Below, in pieces: positions 37,364 through 52,041 of a stretch of 64,000 nt of DNA. Location: positions 18,761-82,760 of the forward strand of contig CAZPGS010000001.1 of the NCBI GenBank assembly GCA_964586135.1, read 5' to 3'. Source of the DNA: an uncultured Nitrososphaerota archaeon (GTDB lineage Archaea; Thermoproteota; Methanomethylicia; Nezhaarchaeales; WYZ-LMO8). Below the pieces are notes generated by a model that worked only from the letters and a program-made list of their open reading frames with translations, had not been told where the DNA came from and made no database searches. The position numbers and the translations under genes are program-made. The first letter of the stretch is position 1. Every line of letters begins with the position of its first letter.

Positions 37364-37565
37364 CGGACTTCAGAATCGTTTTAGCAAAATTGAGCTACAC
37401 GACGACTCAATAAATCATTCACCTACTTCATGGTCGCCTACAATACGTTTGCTTTTACAGACCTCTTCATCTTATTATCATAATTAACAAAGCGTTTCCC
37501 GATAACTAAGCAAATCGGGGGTCGCGTGTCGTCAGGGTTCAAGACTTAAATCAAAAATGAATGGG

Positions 37566-37640
37566 GGTCATCACCACTCCTCTTCCCATTCCTCCTCTTC
37601 CCATTCCTCCTCCTCTTCCCATTCCTCCCATTCTTCCTCC
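37566..37640 (+). repeat. Polypyrimidine microsatellite-like tract (imperfect CATTCCTCCTCTTCC units) encoding H/S-rich low complexity at the 5' end of the THUMP ORF
   Basis: Plus strand reads catcaccactcctcttcccattcctcctcttcccattcctcctcctcttcccattcctcccattcttcctccatttcc, almost purely C/T. In the ORF frame it translates to HHHSSSHSSSSHSSSSSHSSHSSS. Confidence 0.6.
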
Positions 37641-37760
37641 ATTTCCACGCCCCCTGAAGCGCTTTCTGAAGAGTTATGGCTTTATTTAAAGTTACCGATC
37701 AAATTCTTTAGGGAAGCTTTTAAAGGTCTTCCTTATAAAACACACACGAAGGTGTCGTCG

Positions 37761-38282
37761 GTGAAGTTCAACTTGTTAGTGTCGACGTATCGAAATAGGG
37801 AGGACGACTGTATCAGTGAGCTGTGGTACCTCTTTCGAGAGCTAGGCGACGACCAAGTAGAGGTGCGTAGGGCTCTAGTCCCCGGCCTCTTATTGGTGAA
37901 GACTAAGCTGGACGCCTACGAGGCCTCTAAGAAAATAGGAGAGATAGCTAAGGAAAGGCCGTGGGACGTTAGGTATACGCTTAAGCTCACCCCGATAGAT
38001 GCTGTCACAAGCGATGATATTGAGGAGATAAAGAGGGTTGCCGTCTCGTTTGCCAATAAGAAGATAAGCGAGGGCGAGACTTATCGAATAACCGTAAATA
38101 AGAGGGTCTCCGGTATAAGTAGCCGAAGGCTTATAGAAGAGATAGCCGAAGAAGTCAATAGAAAGGTCAACCTGAAAAATCCTGATAAAATTCTGCAAAT
38201 AGAGATCATCGGCAAAGACGTGGGGATAGCAATATTGAGGCCAGAAGACATAGTTTCTATAGTGAAGATAACTACCTCCTAA
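37761..38282 (+). CDS. Stand-alone THUMP-domain RNA-binding protein (COG1818-like)
   Basis: From the in-frame GTG at 37761 the product (V/M)KFNLLVSTYRNREDDCISELWYLFRELGDD... (173 aa) matches the size and N-terminal FNLLVTT motif of archaeal THUMP-only proteins. The track ORF starts at ATG 37557 with the His/Ser-rich extension and has no internal Met, so the true start is ambiguous. Confidence 0.55.
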   Translation: MKFNLLVSTYRNREDDCISELWYLFRELGDDQVEVRRALVPGLLLVKTKLDAYEASKKIGEIAKERPWDVRYTLKLTPIDAVTSDDIEEIKRVAVSFANKKISEGETYRITVNKRVSGISSRRLIEEIAEEVNRKVNLKNPDKILQIEIIGKDVGIAILRPEDIVSIVKITTS

Positions 38283-42884: not shown

Positions 42885-43499
42885 TTGAGGTTGTTAATAA
42901 CTGGGACGCCTTCTACTGGCAAGACGACTATAGCAAAGAGGTTGGCCGAGGTCCTAAATTATCGGCACGTCGAGGTTGCAAAGGTAGTAGTCGAGGAGAA
43001 ATTGTATAAAGGTTTGGACAAAGCGAGGGGTAGCCTCATTGTAGATGTTAAGAGAGCTAGAAAATTTTTTGCGGCATATTTCGTAAAGCACCGCGATGTC
43101 ATCCTCGACAGCCACGTTGTTGAGATATTTCCAAGAAATTTCATAGATAAGGTGCTAGTTCTAAGAGCGCATCCTCTCCTCATCTTAAAGAGAGGAGTCG
43201 AAAGAGGGTGGCCCTTGGAAAAATGCTTGGAAAATGCGCAAGCAGAGCTATTAGGGGTATGTCTTTTTGATGCCTTACGATTTTATGGGAGAAAGAAGGT
43301 CTGGCAAATCGACTGCACGTGTCGCTCGGTAGAGGAGGCTGTCTCAGAGATCCTAGACATACTCCGAAATAGGAGGAGAAGGAATATAGATTGGCTTACA
43401 GAACTTGAGAAGGAGAGGAGGCTCGACTTATTACTGGAGCTGGAAAAAGCTCGTGATCTTCCTGTAGATCTCTTCAAACTTCTGAGCGATTGTAGATAG
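42885..43499 (+). CDS. Fap7/AK6-like adenylate (nucleoside) kinase, P-loop NTPase
   Basis: MRLLITGTPSTGKTTIAKRLAE resembles archaeal Fap7/AdkA-like kinases (MLIAITGTPGVGKTT...). The 204-aa ORF is longer than typical; its 3' end overlaps the convergent pilin-like ORF. Confidence 0.6.
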   Translation: MRLLITGTPSTGKTTIAKRLAEVLNYRHVEVAKVVVEEKLYKGLDKARGSLIVDVKRARKFFAAYFVKHRDVILDSHVVEIFPRNFIDKVLVLRAHPLLILKRGVERGWPLEKCLENAQAELLGVCLFDALRFYGRKKVWQIDCTCRSVEEAVSEILDILRNRRRRNIDWLTELEKERRLDLLLELEKARDLPVDLFKLLSDCR

Positions 43500-43676
43500 G
43501 AAGTCTCCTGTGGCTTTGCCCGCGCTATTCAAGGTCGTGCTGACCCCTCCTAAAAGTCCTATGACCATAGATAAAATTATCGAGAGAAGCACAACTGAGA
43601 TGCCTATAAGCATGCCCTCCTCTAAGAGCAATGACCCTCTAACGCTTTTCCTGCAATTTTTATACACGCTTCTCAC
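43431..43676 (-). CDS. Flp/type-IV-pilin-like small protein (class III signal peptide, Glu at +5)
   Basis: MRSVYKNCRKSVRG|SLLLEEGMLIGISVVLLSIILSMVIGLLGG... has a basic n-region, a putative prepilin cleavage site after RG, E at +5/+6, then a ~25-aa hydrophobic helix. 81 aa. Lies immediately downstream of the TadB/TadC-like genes. Confidence 0.4.
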   Translation of the reverse strand: MRSVYKNCRKSVRGSLLLEEGMLIGISVVLLSIILSMVIGLLGGVSTTLNSAGKATGDFLSTIAQKFEEIYRKITSFFQLQ

Positions 43677-43700
43677 GACCTCTTCTAAGACAAAGGGCTC

Positions 43701-44519
43701 TTAAACATATCCATAGGGTGGTAAGAATATTATCACGGCTAGAATTATGAAGCAAATGGCCAAGTCTTTGAATGAGGGATAACGAAGTTGAATTATGCAG
43801 GTGAAAACTGTGAAGATCGTTATAGACAATGAAGCAAATGATATAAAGACGAGAGCGCTGGGGATGGGGTTCACGAACGAAAACTTTGCAAACGCGAAGA
43901 ACGTCTTCATAACAAGGCCCAAGGTCATGGACGAGGCCATTTGCAACACCCTATACTTTAACTTCTCCACGACTATGAACTCTCTGAGCTTTTTAGCGTT
44001 AAGATGAAGTGAAAAACTCAAGTCATGCAGTGAGGTTACGAGGTTCCTCAAAGAGGCTTCGTCTACGAGGTTAAGCTTTTCTAGTAGCGAAAAAGCCAGC
44101 CTCGTTAGAGGAGACGAAATCTTCGTAGCACTTGAAGGATTTGTCCTCTTGGCCCCTGAGGTCCTCCTGTAAAGCAGGTCCCTTACAATCCCCTTCGTCT
44201 TCAGTTGGGCTTCGGATTCCTTGTGGGACATTTTATATGTCTCTTTTAGTAGAGAGAGCAAATTCCTTTGACGGCCTAAGGACTCTATAGACTTCGTAGT
44301 GAATGAATAGAAGGCTTCGTAGTCAGTAAAGCAATTATTTAGTTCTGTTACCACTTCGATGCAATCCTTTATGACCGTATATACGAAGAAGGCCACAGTA
44401 AGAGAACAAGAGGAAGAGAGGAGGAAGTTTGAGGTCATCGAGAAGAAGAATAAGAAGGAGTTCGAAGCAAAGACAAGCGCTAAGAAGACGGCTTTGATGA
44501 TTAAAGCCACAACGATCAC
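43701..44519 (-). CDS. TadC/GspF-like type IV pilus platform membrane protein (C-terminal half-size paralogue)
   Basis: Multi-TM protein, 272 aa. It begins with GTG directly after the TAG stop of the upstream TadB-like gene, in the same reading frame. Confidence 0.5.
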   Translation of the reverse strand: MIVVALIIKAVFLALVFASNSFLFFFSMTSNFLLSSSCSLTVAFFVYTVIKDCIEVVTELNNCFTDYEAFYSFTTKSIESLGRQRNLLSLLKETYKMSHKESEAQLKTKGIVRDLLYRRTSGAKRTNPSSATKISSPLTRLAFSLLEKLNLVDEASLRNLVTSLHDLSFSLHLNAKKLREFIVVEKLKYRVLQMASSMTLGLVMKTFFAFAKFSFVNPIPSALVFISFASLSITIFTVFTCIIQLRYPSFKDLAICFIILAVIIFLPPYGYV

Positions 44520-45170
44520 CTAAATGAGGATTGAGGCGTAACGCTTTAAGACCACGATTATCAGTTGCAGGGTGATACCGTAAAATAGCGATGCTATGAT
44601 TGGTAGTAGTGCGAGAACTCCTTCTTGGTGAAAAAGCGCTGAAATGATTATCACTACAGGGGCCATAGTGATGCTAGTAAGCACTATTGTGACGATGTTT
44701 CTAACGTTGGACGTGAACAATCTCTTTCTCAGGTCTTTTACGAGCTCTTGAAACAGAAGCTCATTGATCTTCTGCTCATTTCGAGTATATAGGTCGGAAA
44801 GACTCAGATTGAGGAAGGGGGTGTTAAAAGACATGGTCTCTGCGCTACGCCCCAAAGAGAGGTTCTGAGCAAGCAATTTCAGTTGCGAGGACAGTATTTG
44901 ACGCGAGCTCTCAAGCCTCGCTAAGGCTATAAATGACGACAAATTGTTGCGATATATGTGACGCATTATCGACAGCATCTTAAGCAACAGAGGATTAGGC
45001 TCTGCCACAAAGCCGCGTCTCTTTAAGCCCTTTAGCTGATGACTAAAAATCAAGCTAAAAAACACTATTAAGAGCAACGATAACATGACAGTGTGCTCAG
45101 GTAACATATGCACCCTCCTTTGCGAGTCTTTGAATAAGGTCGTCAAACGCTTTGGTGAAGCGCTCGACAT
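44520..45170 (-). CDS. TadB/GspF-like type IV pilus platform membrane protein (N-terminal half-size paralogue)
   Basis: 216 aa, TM helices at both ends with a cytoplasmic helical domain between, as in TadB/TadC/FlaJ halves. Its 5' end overlaps the ATPase gene 3' end. Confidence 0.5.
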   Translation of the reverse strand: MSSASPKRLTTLFKDSQRRVHMLPEHTVMLSLLLIVFFSLIFSHQLKGLKRRGFVAEPNPLLLKMLSIMRHIYRNNLSSFIALARLESSRQILSSQLKLLAQNLSLGRSAETMSFNTPFLNLSLSDLYTRNEQKINELLFQELVKDLRKRLFTSNVRNIVTIVLTSITMAPVVIIISALFHQEGVLALLPIIASLFYGITLQLIIVVLKRYASILI

Positions 45171-47241
45171 CGGGTGGAGGGCTTAATGCTAATGAGTTTA
45201 ATAGCACCTTTAGCTCTTCGTATTCTTTCTCTAGCATAGCGCGGCTATTTCCTAGCTCTAATAGCTTGAGTATCGAAAGCGACTTAAAAACGTCGTCTAA
45301 GACGATATCGTGTAAGTCTCTTTCCGGGTCCCACTTATATATCAAACTTAGAGGGACGTCGAATAGATCGATGGAAGCCGACTTTGGCGAGCCGACGGCC
45401 CACACCTCCGCAACTCGCCTTAGAATTCTAGAGCCTTGATAGCACTTCACCATGTGGACTATCAAGTCTATGCCGCTCAAATCCTCCTTAGAGATGCCAC
45501 AATGTAATACTAGGCGTCTTATTAGACCAAAGACTGACGAGGCATGACATGTGTGTATCCCTCGAAGACCTGCCGCAATGGCATGGAATAGAGCTTTAAA
45601 GTGTTCCCTCGACTGTAACTCTCCTAGGCAGATCCAGTCTGGAGTCCTATGTAAGAGTTTAATTATCTCCACGGATTTTTTCCGGGTTTTCTCTTCCACT
45701 TCAAAGGGCTCCACATAAAGTCTAAGTTGGTGGCGACCTTGACCTCTTTGGTCCAGGCTCTCGATAATGTCTTCTATGTAGACTTTACGCCAGTTCTTAG
45801 GAGTACATAAATCAAGAGCATTCATTAACGTGGTTTTCCCTGTTCCGGGCTCGCCACATATTATGATGTTCCTTCTATTTATGACGTGTAGAATCAAGAA
45901 GGCCGCTTCCTCTCGTGAGAGCACATTGTTGAGAAAAAGGTCTACTATCGTGTACACTCTGTGCCTCATCTTTCGAAGGTCAAGAGAGGGACCTTCATGA
46001 GAAAGAGGGGGTATGTCTATTGACGCTCTGACGATAAAATCGCCCATTTTCATGTTCCACTTCAAGGATGGATTTAAGTAATTTAGCGGTAGCCTGCTTT
46101 CAAGTAATACATGATTTATAAAGCGCTCTACATCTCTGTCACGTAAAGCCACATTACTTACACATCTTCCAAATTCCTCGTGGTCTACGTATACTCTTGT
46201 CCCAGGCCTGTCAAGATAGATCTCATCAACATGCTTATCCAATAAGAAGGGCATTAACTTGTGCACCCCCAAAGCTTTGTACGCCGAGAAGCATGCAACT
46301 TTCTTGGCTAAGCGGTCATCTCCAGGGGCTAAGTTCTTGCTTTTTATGATGTCCTCGAAAGTATCCTTTAAAAAGCATATTTTATCCCATAGAGAGTCCT
46401 GTTTTATCATCTCGTCGAAGACCTTCTCGTCAATGCTTTCAATCAACACATAGGATAGGTACTTTAATGCGAGGGGCAAATTTTGTGACACATAATAGAA
46501 ATAATCAGACGACTCTGAGCAGCGTATCTCCACATTGAATATGTCAAACTCGTAAGTTTTGATTTGTAATTTTTTGAAATGAGAATCAGAGAAAACCGAT
46601 TTCTTGACTTTCTGTGGGCGAAATACATCCTTATAAATTTCATTTCCAAGGACTCCTTGACCCTTCTCTATAAGTAGCGAGATCAATTGCGACCCTTCAA
46701 TCTCTTTTAGAGAAAGCGCCAAGAGGGATTTAAGGCCCTCAACGCACCTCTTGTCTCTACACCGCGCTTTATTGGCCTCTAGAAAAGCTAGACGCAGGGA
46801 GTTGTAGAAGGCAAGAGGGTCAATATAGGCAACGCCTAAATCTTTGAAGAAGGATAGGTTATCCTTACAATCGGCGACGCTCCTATATAACACACAGGAC
46901 TGAGAGCATTGGTGTTGCAAGGACCGAGAATTGCTGACGCAATATTTTGCCCAAACCCTCATGAAGGCTTTTCTAAGCTTGGAAAGCCTAAAAGAGTAGT
47001 CCCTCAACAACTCTACGGTTGAGGGGCTGTATTCTAAGAGGGAGTCCCCTTCTTGTACCAAAAGGGAAATCCCCTTCACACTCTCGCTTAATAGCGATAA
47101 CCTTAAGAGTAACTTGCCCCTGCATACTTCATTGTTTACCATATCGGGTTTGTCCTGACGACATTTCACAGCAATCATCGTCCTTCCATCTCTAAACAAT
47201 ATTTTGATGCAGTTTTCGCTGAGGCAATGGGGTATCATCAT
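45097..47241 (-). CDS. Type II/IV secretion-system ATPase (TadA/FlaI/VirB11 family) with a long Cys-containing N-terminal extension
   Basis: Walker A IICGEPGTGKTTLMNAL at ~aa 470. Downstream Asp/His boxes (…ELQSREH…HTCHASS…). 714 aa versus ~420-540 for typical TadA/FlaI. Confidence 0.8.
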   Translation of the reverse strand: MMIPHCLSENCIKILFRDGRTMIAVKCRQDKPDMVNNEVCRGKLLLRLSLLSESVKGISLLVQEGDSLLEYSPSTVELLRDYSFRLSKLRKAFMRVWAKYCVSNSRSLQHQCSQSCVLYRSVADCKDNLSFFKDLGVAYIDPLAFYNSLRLAFLEANKARCRDKRCVEGLKSLLALSLKEIEGSQLISLLIEKGQGVLGNEIYKDVFRPQKVKKSVFSDSHFKKLQIKTYEFDIFNVEIRCSESSDYFYYVSQNLPLALKYLSYVLIESIDEKVFDEMIKQDSLWDKICFLKDTFEDIIKSKNLAPGDDRLAKKVACFSAYKALGVHKLMPFLLDKHVDEIYLDRPGTRVYVDHEEFGRCVSNVALRDRDVERFINHVLLESRLPLNYLNPSLKWNMKMGDFIVRASIDIPPLSHEGPSLDLRKMRHRVYTIVDLFLNNVLSREEAAFLILHVINRRNIIICGEPGTGKTTLMNALDLCTPKNWRKVYIEDIIESLDQRGQGRHQLRLYVEPFEVEEKTRKKSVEIIKLLHRTPDWICLGELQSREHFKALFHAIAAGLRGIHTCHASSVFGLIRRLVLHCGISKEDLSGIDLIVHMVKCYQGSRILRRVAEVWAVGSPKSASIDLFDVPLSLIYKWDPERDLHDIVLDDVFKSLSILKLLELGNSRAMLEKEYEELKVLLNSLALSPPPDVERFTKAFDDLIQRLAKEGAYVT

Positions 47242-47325
47242 TGTATTGATTTTGACTTAAGTATTTTATAGACCAACATCGCTAGGTAACGAGAACACGC
47301 AATAGCATGAGGCTATGCACATCTG

Positions 47326-50333: not shown

Positions 50334-50711
50334 ATGACAACCGACATATTGATGGACATAGAGGCTGAAATCAGCAAAATAGAGAAGAGCGAGCTAAAAA
50401 ACCTAAGCGTTGTTAAGTTCGTTGCTTCAGAGACCGTTAACGTCAGTTTAGAAATCCCTCGTTCTCTACTTCAAGTAAAAGAGGGAGGGAAGGCGCGCTT
50501 AGTCATAAGTACCAATCCCAGCATCGAGCAGGATGTGAATGCTTTGTTTCTATTTATGATATACAATATCGAAAAGGTCAAAAGCGGGAAAGAAGAAAGG
50601 ACCCTCATATATGGATCCATCGGAGGGCTTCAAGTTAGAATAGAAGGCAAGGGGCTTCATAAAAAATTCAAGGCCGGAGACGAAGTTTACTTAGGAATTA
50701 AGTTACTGTAA
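50334..50711 (+). CDS. Hypothetical protein; possibly RNA polymerase subunit Rpo8 (RpoG)-like OB-fold protein
   Basis: 125 aa. Faint resemblance to crenarchaeal Rpo8 (SLKNLS.., ..IYGSIGGLQVRIEG.., AGDEVYLGIK). Not secure. Confidence 0.25.
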   Translation: MTTDILMDIEAEISKIEKSELKNLSVVKFVASETVNVSLEIPRSLLQVKEGGKARLVISTNPSIEQDVNALFLFMIYNIEKVKSGKEERTLIYGSIGGLQVRIEGKGLHKKFKAGDEVYLGIKLL

Positions 50712-50864: not shown

Positions 50865-51860
50865 TTGCATGGAACTGCTTGCAAAGAGTGTGGCGGGGTA
50901 CTAGTACTCTCAAAAAATGGTGAGTATGTCTGCGAAAGTTGTGGACTCGTTCATGAGGAGGCTGGAACAGCCTTATTCAGTTGTTTGAAGACCAATGACA
51001 AGAGAAGGATGCAACACTTCGAAGTTCTTGACAAAACGCCTTTCAAAGTGCCGAGACTCTGGCGCAATATAGATAGCAACAGTATTGAGAAGGCCGAGGT
51101 AATGAAGTACTTTAGTAGATTAGATTTCGTCCAGCGGTATTACATTGATAAGCTCTCAATAAGGGCTATTCGAAGGGCTTACGCTGTTTTATTGTCCCTA
51201 TGTTCGCTTCTTCCGACGCAATTATCATCAACTATTAAGAGGAGGGCTCTAGAAATGTACTACAGCGCTATCTTGAGATTAAGGAGTGTCAGAAAAAACC
51301 ACGTAGCACTGATGACTGCTAGTTTTTATGTAGCTACAAGGGAAAGGTATAGAAAATGTGATCTGACCTTAAAGCAGATAATCATTCACTTGAGAAAGAT
51401 GAGCATTAACGTATCATTTAGCGATGTCTTCAAGGCTATCTTCTTATTAAGGAAAGTCGTAGGCGTTGCTTTGAGGCCTAGAAGCCCTGAAGAGTTGTTA
51501 TCCGTCGCGGTAAGAAAGGTTATGTGTGACGAAAGGGTCAAGAAAAGACTGCTAAAGAATAACATAGACTTCCTCAAATATTCAAAAGAGCTTTACGCAG
51601 AAACCTCTATGTTACTTAAAAAAGTTAAGTGCAGCAAAAGCCCCTTATCGCTTGTAGCCACAGCTCTATACACCGCTGACAAGATTTTGGTTTTGAAACA
51701 TGGGTGGAAGGACGTGTTGACTCAGAAGTCTTTAAGTTCTGTACTAAACGTGAGCCCTTTCACTATTAGAGAGCTATACTATAAAACATTTAGAAAGCAC
51801 ATTTTTGGTGATCAAAATGAGGAGCAAGACTGTAAAGCTGACCTTAGAGGACTTGCTTGA
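50865..51860 (+). CDS. TFIIB-like transcription factor (divergent TFB paralogue): N-terminal zinc ribbon plus cyclin-like repeats
   Basis: CKECGGVLVLSKNGEYVCESCGLVHEE is a TFB-type C-x2-C-x15-C-x2-C ribbon. The ~330-aa length and helical repeats fit TFB, but B-reader and cyclin-core motifs are poorly conserved. Confidence 0.45.
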   Translation: MHGTACKECGGVLVLSKNGEYVCESCGLVHEEAGTALFSCLKTNDKRRMQHFEVLDKTPFKVPRLWRNIDSNSIEKAEVMKYFSRLDFVQRYYIDKLSIRAIRRAYAVLLSLCSLLPTQLSSTIKRRALEMYYSAILRLRSVRKNHVALMTASFYVATRERYRKCDLTLKQIIIHLRKMSINVSFSDVFKAIFLLRKVVGVALRPRSPEELLSVAVRKVMCDERVKKRLLKNNIDFLKYSKELYAETSMLLKKVKCSKSPLSLVATALYTADKILVLKHGWKDVLTQKSLSSVLNVSPFTIRELYYKTFRKHIFGDQNEEQDCKADLRGLA

Positions 51861-52041
51861 GGTATTGTTAGGTCATGGAATTCAACCTAGGAAAATAGAG
51901 GCAATAATGGCCAGCTTGGGCATCCCTCAAGAATGCGTTAAAAGAGCATTAGCAAACATTATGGCAACATCTTCTCAAAGAGGGGTTAAGGAGAGCGGCT
52001 TAAAGGGAGAAGATCTACGACTGAATGGAGCTAACAACTAA
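51817..52041 (+). CDS. Small hypothetical helical protein overlapping the TFB-like gene 3' end
   Basis: MRSKTVKLTLEDLLEVLLGHGIQPRKIEAIMASLGIPQECVKRALANIMATSS..., 74 aa from the internal Met. No family assigned; may not be expressed. Confidence 0.2.
   Translation: MRSKTVKLTLEDLLEVLLGHGIQPRKIEAIMASLGIPQECVKRALANIMATSSQRGVKESGLKGEDLRLNGANN

Follow-up and report, generated by a model that had tools for sequence, protein, structure and literature searches.

Introduction

Subclade 4D of the archaeal type IV filament systems, known from Pyrobaculum and Thermoproteus (Makarova, Koonin and Albers 2016, PMC4858521), is the described system that comes closest to the locus studied in this work, a cluster of four genes for a secretion ATPase, two membrane proteins (open reading frames (ORFs) ORF2 and ORF3) and a small Flp-like protein (ORF4). 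The cluster lies in a stretch of 64,000 nucleotides (nt), hereafter the window, from an uncultured Nitrososphaerota archaeon of the Nezhaarchaeales (assembly GCA_964586135.1, contig CAZPGS010000001.1, positions 18,761 to 82,760 of the forward strand). In the published description the 4D ATPase carries an extra Cys-rich N-terminal domain, a protein with four to five transmembrane (TM) helices 'might be a highly diverged TadC', and a TFIIB homologue and RPB8 are encoded in or beside the operon; 'no potential pilins ... are ever found', and a transcription-related, non-pilus role was suggested (PMC4858521). A recent preprint (Sivabalasarma and Albers 2026) refers to 4D as a 'remnant ... repurposed' and finds type IV filament systems largely absent in Asgard archaea. 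We found no mention of 4D in the literature beyond these two works. The 4D ATPases (PAE2119-like, arCOG05558) have 335-343 amino acids (aa), and their Pyrobaculum copies are annotated as conjugal transfer proteins. Besides 4D, the Ced DNA import system of archaea is relevant to this locus: its CedD ATPase is essential for DNA import and regulated by TFB3 (PMC11868833, PMC11823120), in the Sulfolobales Ced is induced along with the Ups pili under this TFB paralog, and a T2SSE ATPase is absent from the described Ced and Ted loci.

Compared by context and with the published description, the module to which the window locus belongs matches subclade 4D or is sister to it. The two share a Cys-rich ATPase N-terminus, one or more diverged membrane partners of four to five TM helices, a TFIIB paralog and RPB8/RpoG, and neither has a peptidase or a classical pilin nearby. 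They differ in the ATPase, which has 500-750 aa in the window family (714 in the window) as opposed to 335-343, in the presence of two membrane proteins instead of one, and in the Flp-like small gene found here and the CedD-like ATPase gene found in most relatives. Furthermore, the published range of 4D covers Pyrobaculum and Thermoproteus, whereas the family described here reaches Nezhaarchaeales, Nitrososphaeria and Asgard archaea. The reading that we favour, and to which we give about an even chance, is that the window locus represents, in Nezhaarchaeales, an old type-IV-filament-like module that TACK and Asgard archaea have inherited vertically and that would work as a minimal Flp-type pilus or pseudopilus machine.

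A conserved four-gene operon

The original prediction, a minimal Tad- or type-IV-pilus-like operon, was accurate in gene order, coordinates and the Walker A sequence GEPGTGKTT: all four minus-strand ORFs are intact at the predicted positions (Table 1) and spaced as tightly as expected of an operon: ORF2 runs directly into ORF3, and ORF4 follows after a gap of 24 nt. The ORF proposed as a TadB-like protein of 216 aa does exist, but homologues and gene callers favour the start at 45107, which gives 195 aa and an 11-nt overlap with the ATPase stop. The ratio of nonsynonymous to synonymous substitution rates (dN/dS), calculated against the orthologues in loci L090 and L094 (dS about 1), was lowest for ORF4 (0.11-0.13), followed by the ATPase (0.12-0.16), ORF3 (0.14-0.20) and ORF2 (0.14-0.24); purifying selection acts on all four genes, with the strongest constraint on ORF4. 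Because dN/dS is low and many independent contigs repeat this gene order, the four-gene operon is real, far beyond chance.

Two public gene calls for this contig (L001/L002:12719-13447, equivalent to 43795-44523 of the window) missed ORF3; in its place they have two short opposite-strand ORFs (54 and 70 aa). With 15 homologues, 11 of them at 45-67% identity, ORF3 is clearly a conserved gene.

Searches of the 64-kb window for an A24-type peptidase, archaellum genes or a further ORF with a class-III-like N-terminus detected none, in agreement with the earlier statement that no prepilin peptidase, archaellum or additional pilin genes lie adjacent. TadZ, RcpA, TadE/F and TadV genes are likewise missing from the window.

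An ATPase clade distinct from TadA and FlaI

Against the Pfam model T2SSE (PF00437) the window ATPase scored 55.1 bits, above the cut-off of 24.9, which places it in this superfamily. Its Walker A motif (residues 463-471) and the motifs RKVYIED, HQLR, LHRxPD, GELQ and TCHASS are invariant or nearly so in a 10-sequence alignment of the family, in which the T2SSE core is conserved and the N-terminal 230-320 aa or so are variable and rich in Cys. Profile comparison with proteins of the PDB retrieved AfGspE2 (1.5e-19), FlaI (2.8e-17), CpaF (8e-13) and VirB11 (7e-8). Assignment to any of the specific NCBIfam families fails by a wide gap, the ATPase reaching 70 bits for the TadA family TIGR03819 (cut-off 373), 90.6 bits for the FlaI equivalog NF058587 (cut-off 550) and 76 bits for the VirB11 model (cut-off 250), with E values of 2e-21 for VirB11 and 3e-17 for TrbB.

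Close homologues carry the name Candidatus Nezhaarchaeales, and outside the family a word-indexed protein search returned mainly bacterial CpaF proteins at about 29% identity. An exhaustive profile search yielded 873 clusters (50% identity) at E<=1e-30, the best 150 matches all scoring above 340 bits and all falling within the family. Its named members come from Thermoprotei and from Thor-, Heimdall- and Hodarchaeota, to which the genome loci add Hermodarchaeota and Nitrososphaeria. A scan of genome contigs with the single ATPase as query gave no match; a second scan gave five loci of the family, and its other results, about 75, were generic CpaF or archaeal loci, neither Pyrobaculum nor Thermoproteus being represented.

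We placed the ATPase in a neighbour-joining tree (BLOSUM62 distances, 219 core columns, 60 bootstraps), a crude tree that gives no rooting and serves only to support the separateness of clades. The family was monophyletic in 60/60 bootstraps, as were the bacterial CpaF proteins, and FlaI, AfGspE2 and the other archaeal ATPases grouped together in 49/60. The mean distance of the family to CpaF (0.775) is about equal to its distance to the other archaeal ATPases (0.806). The ATPase is thus a deep clade of its own within the T2SSE superfamily, neither Tad-type nor archaellar, because it forms a separate clade, lies about equally far from both groups and misses the model cut-offs by far. The designation as a Tad-type ATPase does not stand, and the phylogenetic check against TadA and FlaI that had been proposed for it showed no grouping with FlaI. 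An archaellum is ruled out as an explanation of the locus by the missed FlaI cut-off, the placement of FlaI in another clade and the lack of fla genes in the window.

Within residues 1-320 of the ATPase, Cys clusters occur at about residue 6 (C-x4-C), 123 (C-x3-C-x8-C) and 170 (C-x4-C). They are kept in Nezhaarchaeales and echoed by the CxxC-rich N-terminus of the Asgard members, and could bind metal.

ORF4 as a candidate Flp-like pilin

ORF4 has a basic leader, the sequence RG/SLLLEE (the slash marks the putative cleavage site), a hydrophobic helix of about 22-25 aa and an amphipathic C-terminal helix. The register [KR][GA]/xxxxEE[GSA]xL[LI] is kept in Nezhaarchaeales, Thermoprotei, Nitrososphaeria and Thor- and Hermodarchaeota. 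Instances besides that of the window are KA/GPLIEE in another member of the Nezhaarchaeales (L006), KG/SQMIEE in Thermoprotei, YA/VQLVEE in Nitrososphaeria, RA/AQLIEE in a high-GC archaeon (L014) and KG/GPLVEE in Thor- and Hermodarchaeota. At +1 the family has S, G or A; in most members positions -2 and -1 and the helix agree with class III signals.

A profile built from ten members was searched against 16,002 six-frame segments of the collected loci, 82 of which show the Flp motif by background. Its best 14 matches outside the family were all Flp pilins of genuine Tad loci, at E values from 0.0026 to 0.56 (0.049 for the best match in a reversed-database control), and the next sequences retrieved were pilins of DPANN archaea. 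When the ORF4 family profile was aligned with an Flp alignment (hhalign), the probability was 69% (E 4e-5), and both G(-1) and E(+5) fell into register. By its size, the G(-1)/E(+5) pair, the hydrophobic helix and this profile similarity, ORF4 is Flp-like in sequence. We also considered ORF4 as a pilin of the CedA1/VirB2 type, which is ruled out by its single hydrophobic helix and its G-x4-E motif.

ORF2 and ORF3 as putative half-platforms

ORF2, which is conserved across the Nezhaarchaeales, is predicted to have a single TM helix at its N-terminus, then a helical cytoplasmic part and a pair of TM helices at the C-terminus. The overall topology of ORF2 and ORF3, in which a helical cytoplasmic segment is flanked by one or more TM helices on the N-terminal side and by TM helices at the C-terminus, is compatible with half-platforms. 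In all TACK relatives the same two positions are taken by proteins of four to five TM helices and 243-294 aa (proteins A and B), among which T2SSF is the sole recurrent Pfam family. Protein A of the sister lineages matched T2SSF with 25.7 and 23.8 bits (cut-off 25.2) and protein B with 16.8 bits over its full length, a second member of B giving an E value of 0.0027; the full-length T2SSF match of the sister protein P0074 has an E value of 0.0068.

For a more direct comparison, reference alignments of TadB and TadC were made from genuine proteins of bacterial Tad loci that we had fetched, and the profiles of the sister lineages were merged. Comparison with hhalign related protein B to TadC and TadB (92.6% and 91.8%, E 5e-7), protein A to the TadB and TadC alignments (73% and 62%; TadB 72.9%), and A to B (81%). 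Window-type ORF2 aligned with protein A at 42.8% over 142 collinear columns, a weak but specific match, and window-type ORF3 with protein B at 33%, also weak, cross pairs being at about 1%. Position, topology and this weak profile signal suggest that ORF2 and ORF3 are probably a TadB/TadC-like pair; the half-platform assignment is made because the positional orthologues in the sister lineages, not the window's own proteins, show these resemblances.

Genomic neighbourhood

The four genes belong to a larger conserved arrangement. A homologue of ORF4 follows in 10 of the 11 independent loci anchored on the ATPase, the exception being L010, a two-gene form in which the N-terminus of the adjoining gene resembles, by eye, RNA polymerase subunit B. 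Metagenomes were scanned from the ORF4 side with a five-sequence alignment, the ten-sequence alignment being too diverse for this use. Where these ORF4-anchored loci had at least 3.7 kb of upstream sequence, the ATPase was found at a fixed distance in 16 of 19, and the gap of about 1.6 kb between ATPase and ORF4 is occupied by two proteins of four to five TM helices.

A divergent TFIIB/TFB paralog lies in the window about 3 kb from the operon, next to the gene for RNA polymerase subunit G (RpoG). The paralog matches Zn_Ribbon_TF (4.7e-6) and a TFIIB (cyclin) repeat (4e-4), both below the Pfam cut-offs, and is homologous over its full length to the TFB-like genes beside the ATPase in L006, L009, L011 and L013; the TFB paralogs are, as judged by this homology, orthologous across phyla. 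A TFB-like gene stands directly 5' of the ATPase in L008, L009, L011 and L115 (Thor- and Hermodarchaeota, Thermoprotei and the L115 lineage) and nearby in other loci, and RpoG recurs alongside it in L004-L008 and L011. A UBA-like accessory protein of 146-174 aa precedes the ATPase in L006, L100 and L104, and a 74-aa ORF of the window matches these proteins in pairwise BLASTP over the N-terminal 45 residues (3e-7 to 2e-6). In the window the TFB, UBA-relic and RpoG block is cut off from the operon by genes for an Lsm protein, an archaeosine tRNA-guanine transglycosylase and a PAC2 protein; that the block is apart here and adjoins the ATPase in relatives suggests a local rearrangement.

A CedD-like DUF87 ATPase of 600-640 aa with two N-terminal TM helices is encoded immediately after ORF4 in 15 loci. 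Its best NCBIfam match is CedD, at 240 bits (cut-off 600), the next best model reaching 72 bits. No CedA, CedA1 or CedB was detected in the sister loci that have this gene, and no DUF87/CedD-like gene is present in the 64-kb window. In loci L100, L104 and L120 the order is ATPase, A, B, ORF4, CedD-like gene, convergent Fap7 gene, thermosome and histone, which is the wider synteny of the window, and the CedD-like gene sits between the small gene and Fap7 (L100:5237-7117, L104:6058-7224, L120:5235-7070). Because these three loci share the window's flanks and keep the gene, the window lineage must have deleted it. This deletion also accounts for the position of ORF4, which overlaps the 3' end of the convergent Fap7-like kinase gene (42885-43499) by 69 nt (43431-43499), as originally described; the overlap recurs with 66 nt in L005 and L007. 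The earlier remark that the operon is embedded among housekeeping genes thus misses the main point of the neighbourhood, which is the ancient linkage to a TFIIB paralog, to RpoG and, in relatives, to a CedD-like ATPase. Taken together, synteny and homology indicate that the module is vertically inherited and anciently linked to these partners.

Further variation was seen among the collected loci. In those of Thor- and Hermodarchaeota (L008, L011, L012) and in L115, a TFB-like gene, the ATPase gene and the small gene stand without an adjacent polytopic platform gene, and L011 and L012 have a convergent downstream gene for a secreted-looking protein of 639-653 aa. The Thermoprotei locus L009 contains, between the gene for a 407-aa protein with seven TM helices and the ORF4 homologue, three extra ORFs of 109, 134 and 282 aa (L009:4130-5768) with class-III-like N-termini such as MKDKKG/FLVAIATLLIAIIAIS (KKG/FLVAIATLL); these may be minor pilins, and the 407-aa protein possibly a fused platform. 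In L106 (4977-5246), L107 and L108 (4926-5213) a solitary ORF4 homologue lies by a radical-SAM-like gene with no ATPase within 5 kb, and in L108 also beside a thermosome gene; presence of the ATPase in cis is not required for the small gene to persist. Elsewhere in the window, the longest ORF at 37557-38282 (plus strand) opens with a His/Ser-rich low-complexity stretch, HHHSSSHSSSSHSSSSSHSSHSSS, which precedes the 173-aa THUMP-domain gene of the public calls and is probably a spurious 5' extension.

Table 1. Features of the operon and of its conserved partners in the window
Feature	Position	Strand	Remarks
Secretion ATPase	45097..47241	-	714 aa; T2SSE core and Cys-rich variable N-terminal part
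ORF2, membrane protein A, putative half-platform	44520..45107	-	195 aa (216 aa if read from 45170)
ORF3, membrane protein B, putative second half-platform	43701..44519	-	272 aa, about 4-5 TM helices
ORF4, Flp-like putative prepilin	43431..43676	-	81 aa, MRSVYKNCRKSVRG/SLLLEEGMLIGISVVLLSIILSMVIGLLGG...
TATAAAATA, candidate archaeal TATA box	47262..47270	-	20 nt 5' of the ATPase ATG; read from the sequence
Divergent TFIIB/TFB paralog	50865..51860	+	331 aa; synteny with the module
RNA polymerase subunit G, RpoG (Rpb8-like)	50334..50711	+	PF16992 at 1.8e-10
74-aa ORF, putative short homologue (relic) of the UBA-like accessory protein	51817..52041	+

Discussion

An ATPase, a platform-like pair and a small pilin-like gene place the locus within the type IV filament superfamily, as had been predicted, and outside the archaellum. 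If the favoured reading is correct, a hexameric secretion ATPase would dock on a heterodimer of ORF2 and ORF3, two fast-evolving half-platform proteins; a prepilin peptidase encoded elsewhere would take off the 14-residue leader of ORF4 at RG/S; and the ATPase would then drive the Flp-like ORF4 from the membrane, building a short pilus or pseudopilus. The ancestral role may have been DNA uptake or exchange, like that of a competence pseudopilus or of the combined Ups, Ced and TFB3 of Sulfolobales, because the module is co-inherited with a dedicated TFB paralog and ends with a CedD-like ATPase in most sister lineages. Loss of the CedD-like gene would have reduced the machine of the window to its filament-assembly core. 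That the module as a whole is an ancient TACK/Asgard hybrid for DNA uptake or exchange, joining an Flp-type pseudopilus to a CedD-type translocase under its own TFB paralog, is an idea we consider unlikely.

The locus has features in common with several known systems and is no Tad system in the strict sense. With bacterial Tad/Flp systems it shares the gene logic of an ATPase, two putative single-domain platform halves and a tiny candidate pilin with G/xxxxE and a hydrophobic helix; the membrane proteins of the sister lineages match TadB/TadC and the ORF4 profile retrieves Flp, whereas the ATPase falls outside the CpaF clade, no TadV, TadZ, RcpA or TadE/F accompanies it, the motif reads EE[GSA] instead of E[YF], and Flp_Fap is not reached. 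The Ups, Ced and TFB3 set functionally ties a type IV pilus-type machine, a CedD-type ATPase and a TFB paralog together, and the equivalents are physically clustered in the sister lineages here, although CedA, CedA1 and CedB were not detected and the window itself has no CedD-like gene; TFB3, according to reference 31 cited in PMC11868833, is another TFB paralog than the Zn-ribbon-plus-cyclin protein found here. Among archaeal pilins, very short ones that carry Glu at +5 are known from the euryarchaeal Epd-type pili, and the archaeal model PF04021 matches the motif G-Q-x-T-x-E-Y, which qualifies the claim that Glu at +5 is uncommon in archaeal pilins; these pili differ from the present module, whose ORF4 family has no PF04021 match, which has no EppA-like peptidase or Epd set and whose ATPase belongs to another clade.

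Several observations speak against a filament machine. Published surveys treat the similar 4D as possibly no pilus, and no filament of this module has ever been seen. Neither the window nor any of the related loci examined yielded a prepilin peptidase. In the Asgard loci only the TFB-like gene, the ATPase and ORF4 are present, with no platform gene beside the ATPase, and in three metagenome loci ORF4 occurs without the ATPase. The proteins of the window itself gave little in direct comparison: ORF2 and ORF3 had no match to T2SSF (PF00482) or to any other profile in Pfam, NCBIfam and PDB, hmmsearch with window-type ORF2 and ORF3 profiles found no match among the sister-lineage proteins, and the AlphaFold2 models of ORF2 and ORF3 reached mean confidence (pLDDT) values of 47 and 63, their Foldseek comparison with PDB returning noise. 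Models of such low confidence yield meaningless fold matches. The TadB and TadC labels of the original prediction find support in the positional orthologues, which match T2SSF, TadB and TadC, and no confirmation in the window's own proteins. Similarly for ORF4, none of five family members matched Pfam Flp_Fap (PF04964) at E<=10, whereas the reference Flp genes of the fetched bacterial Tad loci scored 20-34 bits, and no member matched Class_IIIsignal (PF04021); the Flp resemblance that had been proposed for the 81-aa protein is upheld by the profile search and the hhalign register and is not seen by these two Pfam models. The S and G found at +1 in the ORF4 family are also not known to belong to the residues that FlaFind accepts there.

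A rival reading, which we regard as somewhat improbable, is that the module is a repurposed remnant that builds no filament and serves, together with the TFB paralog and RpoG, a membrane-linked pathway related to transcription, ORF4 being a small membrane subunit or regulator rather than a pilin. The same was proposed for 4D both in 2016 and in the 2026 preprint, and the linkage to TFB and RpoG does cross phyla, with operonic spacing in four loci (L008, L009, L011 and L115). It may be, however, that the neighbouring TFB paralog simply regulates the module, in the way TFB3 controls ups and ced. The absence of a peptidase nearby, the Asgard versions without platform genes and a pattern of inheritance resembling that of housekeeping genes (the thermosome, Fap7 and histone synteny) would also suit a remnant. 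Against it stand the pilin-type N-terminus of ORF4, kept under the strongest constraint of the operon, the closeness of the ORF4 profile to Flp pilins, the further pilin-like genes of L009 and the retention of all catalytic motifs in the ATPase.

A DNA translocon akin to type IV secretion systems or Ced appears doubtful to us, more so than a remnant. It would combine a VirB11-like and a CedD-like (VirD4/VirB4-like) ATPase with a polytopic channel, ORF4 serving as a small channel or pilin subunit and the window copy, without CedD, being degenerate. The CedD-like ATPase directly 3' of ORF4 in 15 sister loci, far closer to CedD than to any other model, speaks for it, together with the VirB11 and TrbB matches of the window ATPase and the conjugal-transfer annotation of the Pyrobaculum 4D ATPases. 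The membrane proteins, however, resemble the filament platforms T2SSF, TadB and TadC and not VirB6 or CedA; ORF4, with one helix and G-x4-E, departs from the two-helix pilins VirB2, CedA1 and TedC; and Ced and Ted loci do without a T2SSE ATPase, just as the window does without a CedD-like gene. Acquisition of a bona fide Tad/Flp system from bacteria, suggested at first sight by the predominance of bacterial CpaF among matches outside the family and by the Flp-like ORF4, is highly improbable: the ATPase clade is separate from CpaF in all 60 bootstraps and equally far from archaeal ATPases, it reaches only 70 of the 373 bits set for TadA, the synteny is vertical across archaeal phyla beside archaeal housekeeping genes, and TadZ, RcpA, TadE/F and TadV are all missing.

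Our analysis adds two points to the literature: the conserved candidate for a pilin, and a linkage to CedD and TFB that extends over TACK and Asgard archaea. In the published picture such systems are confined to Pyrobaculum and Thermoproteus, have no pilin and are possibly relics; here they appear as a large, vertically inherited family of Thermoproteota and Asgard archaea, with a strongly conserved candidate for an Flp-like subunit and a physical linkage to a CedD-type translocase and a TFB paralog. Should the module be the DNA-uptake hybrid that we consider unlikely, the 'pilin-less remnant' 4D would have a filament subunit, and the module would represent a physically clustered counterpart of the Ups/Ced/TFB3 regulon, which in Sulfolobales is dispersed and concerned with DNA damage, or its evolutionary forerunner, and one that reaches into Asgard archaea. 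The wider picture of the family, if correct, would provide a concrete subunit to seek by cryo-electron tomography and proteomics, be relevant to the origin of bacterial Tad pili in archaea, and offer a testable DNA-uptake candidate for lineages without a known system.

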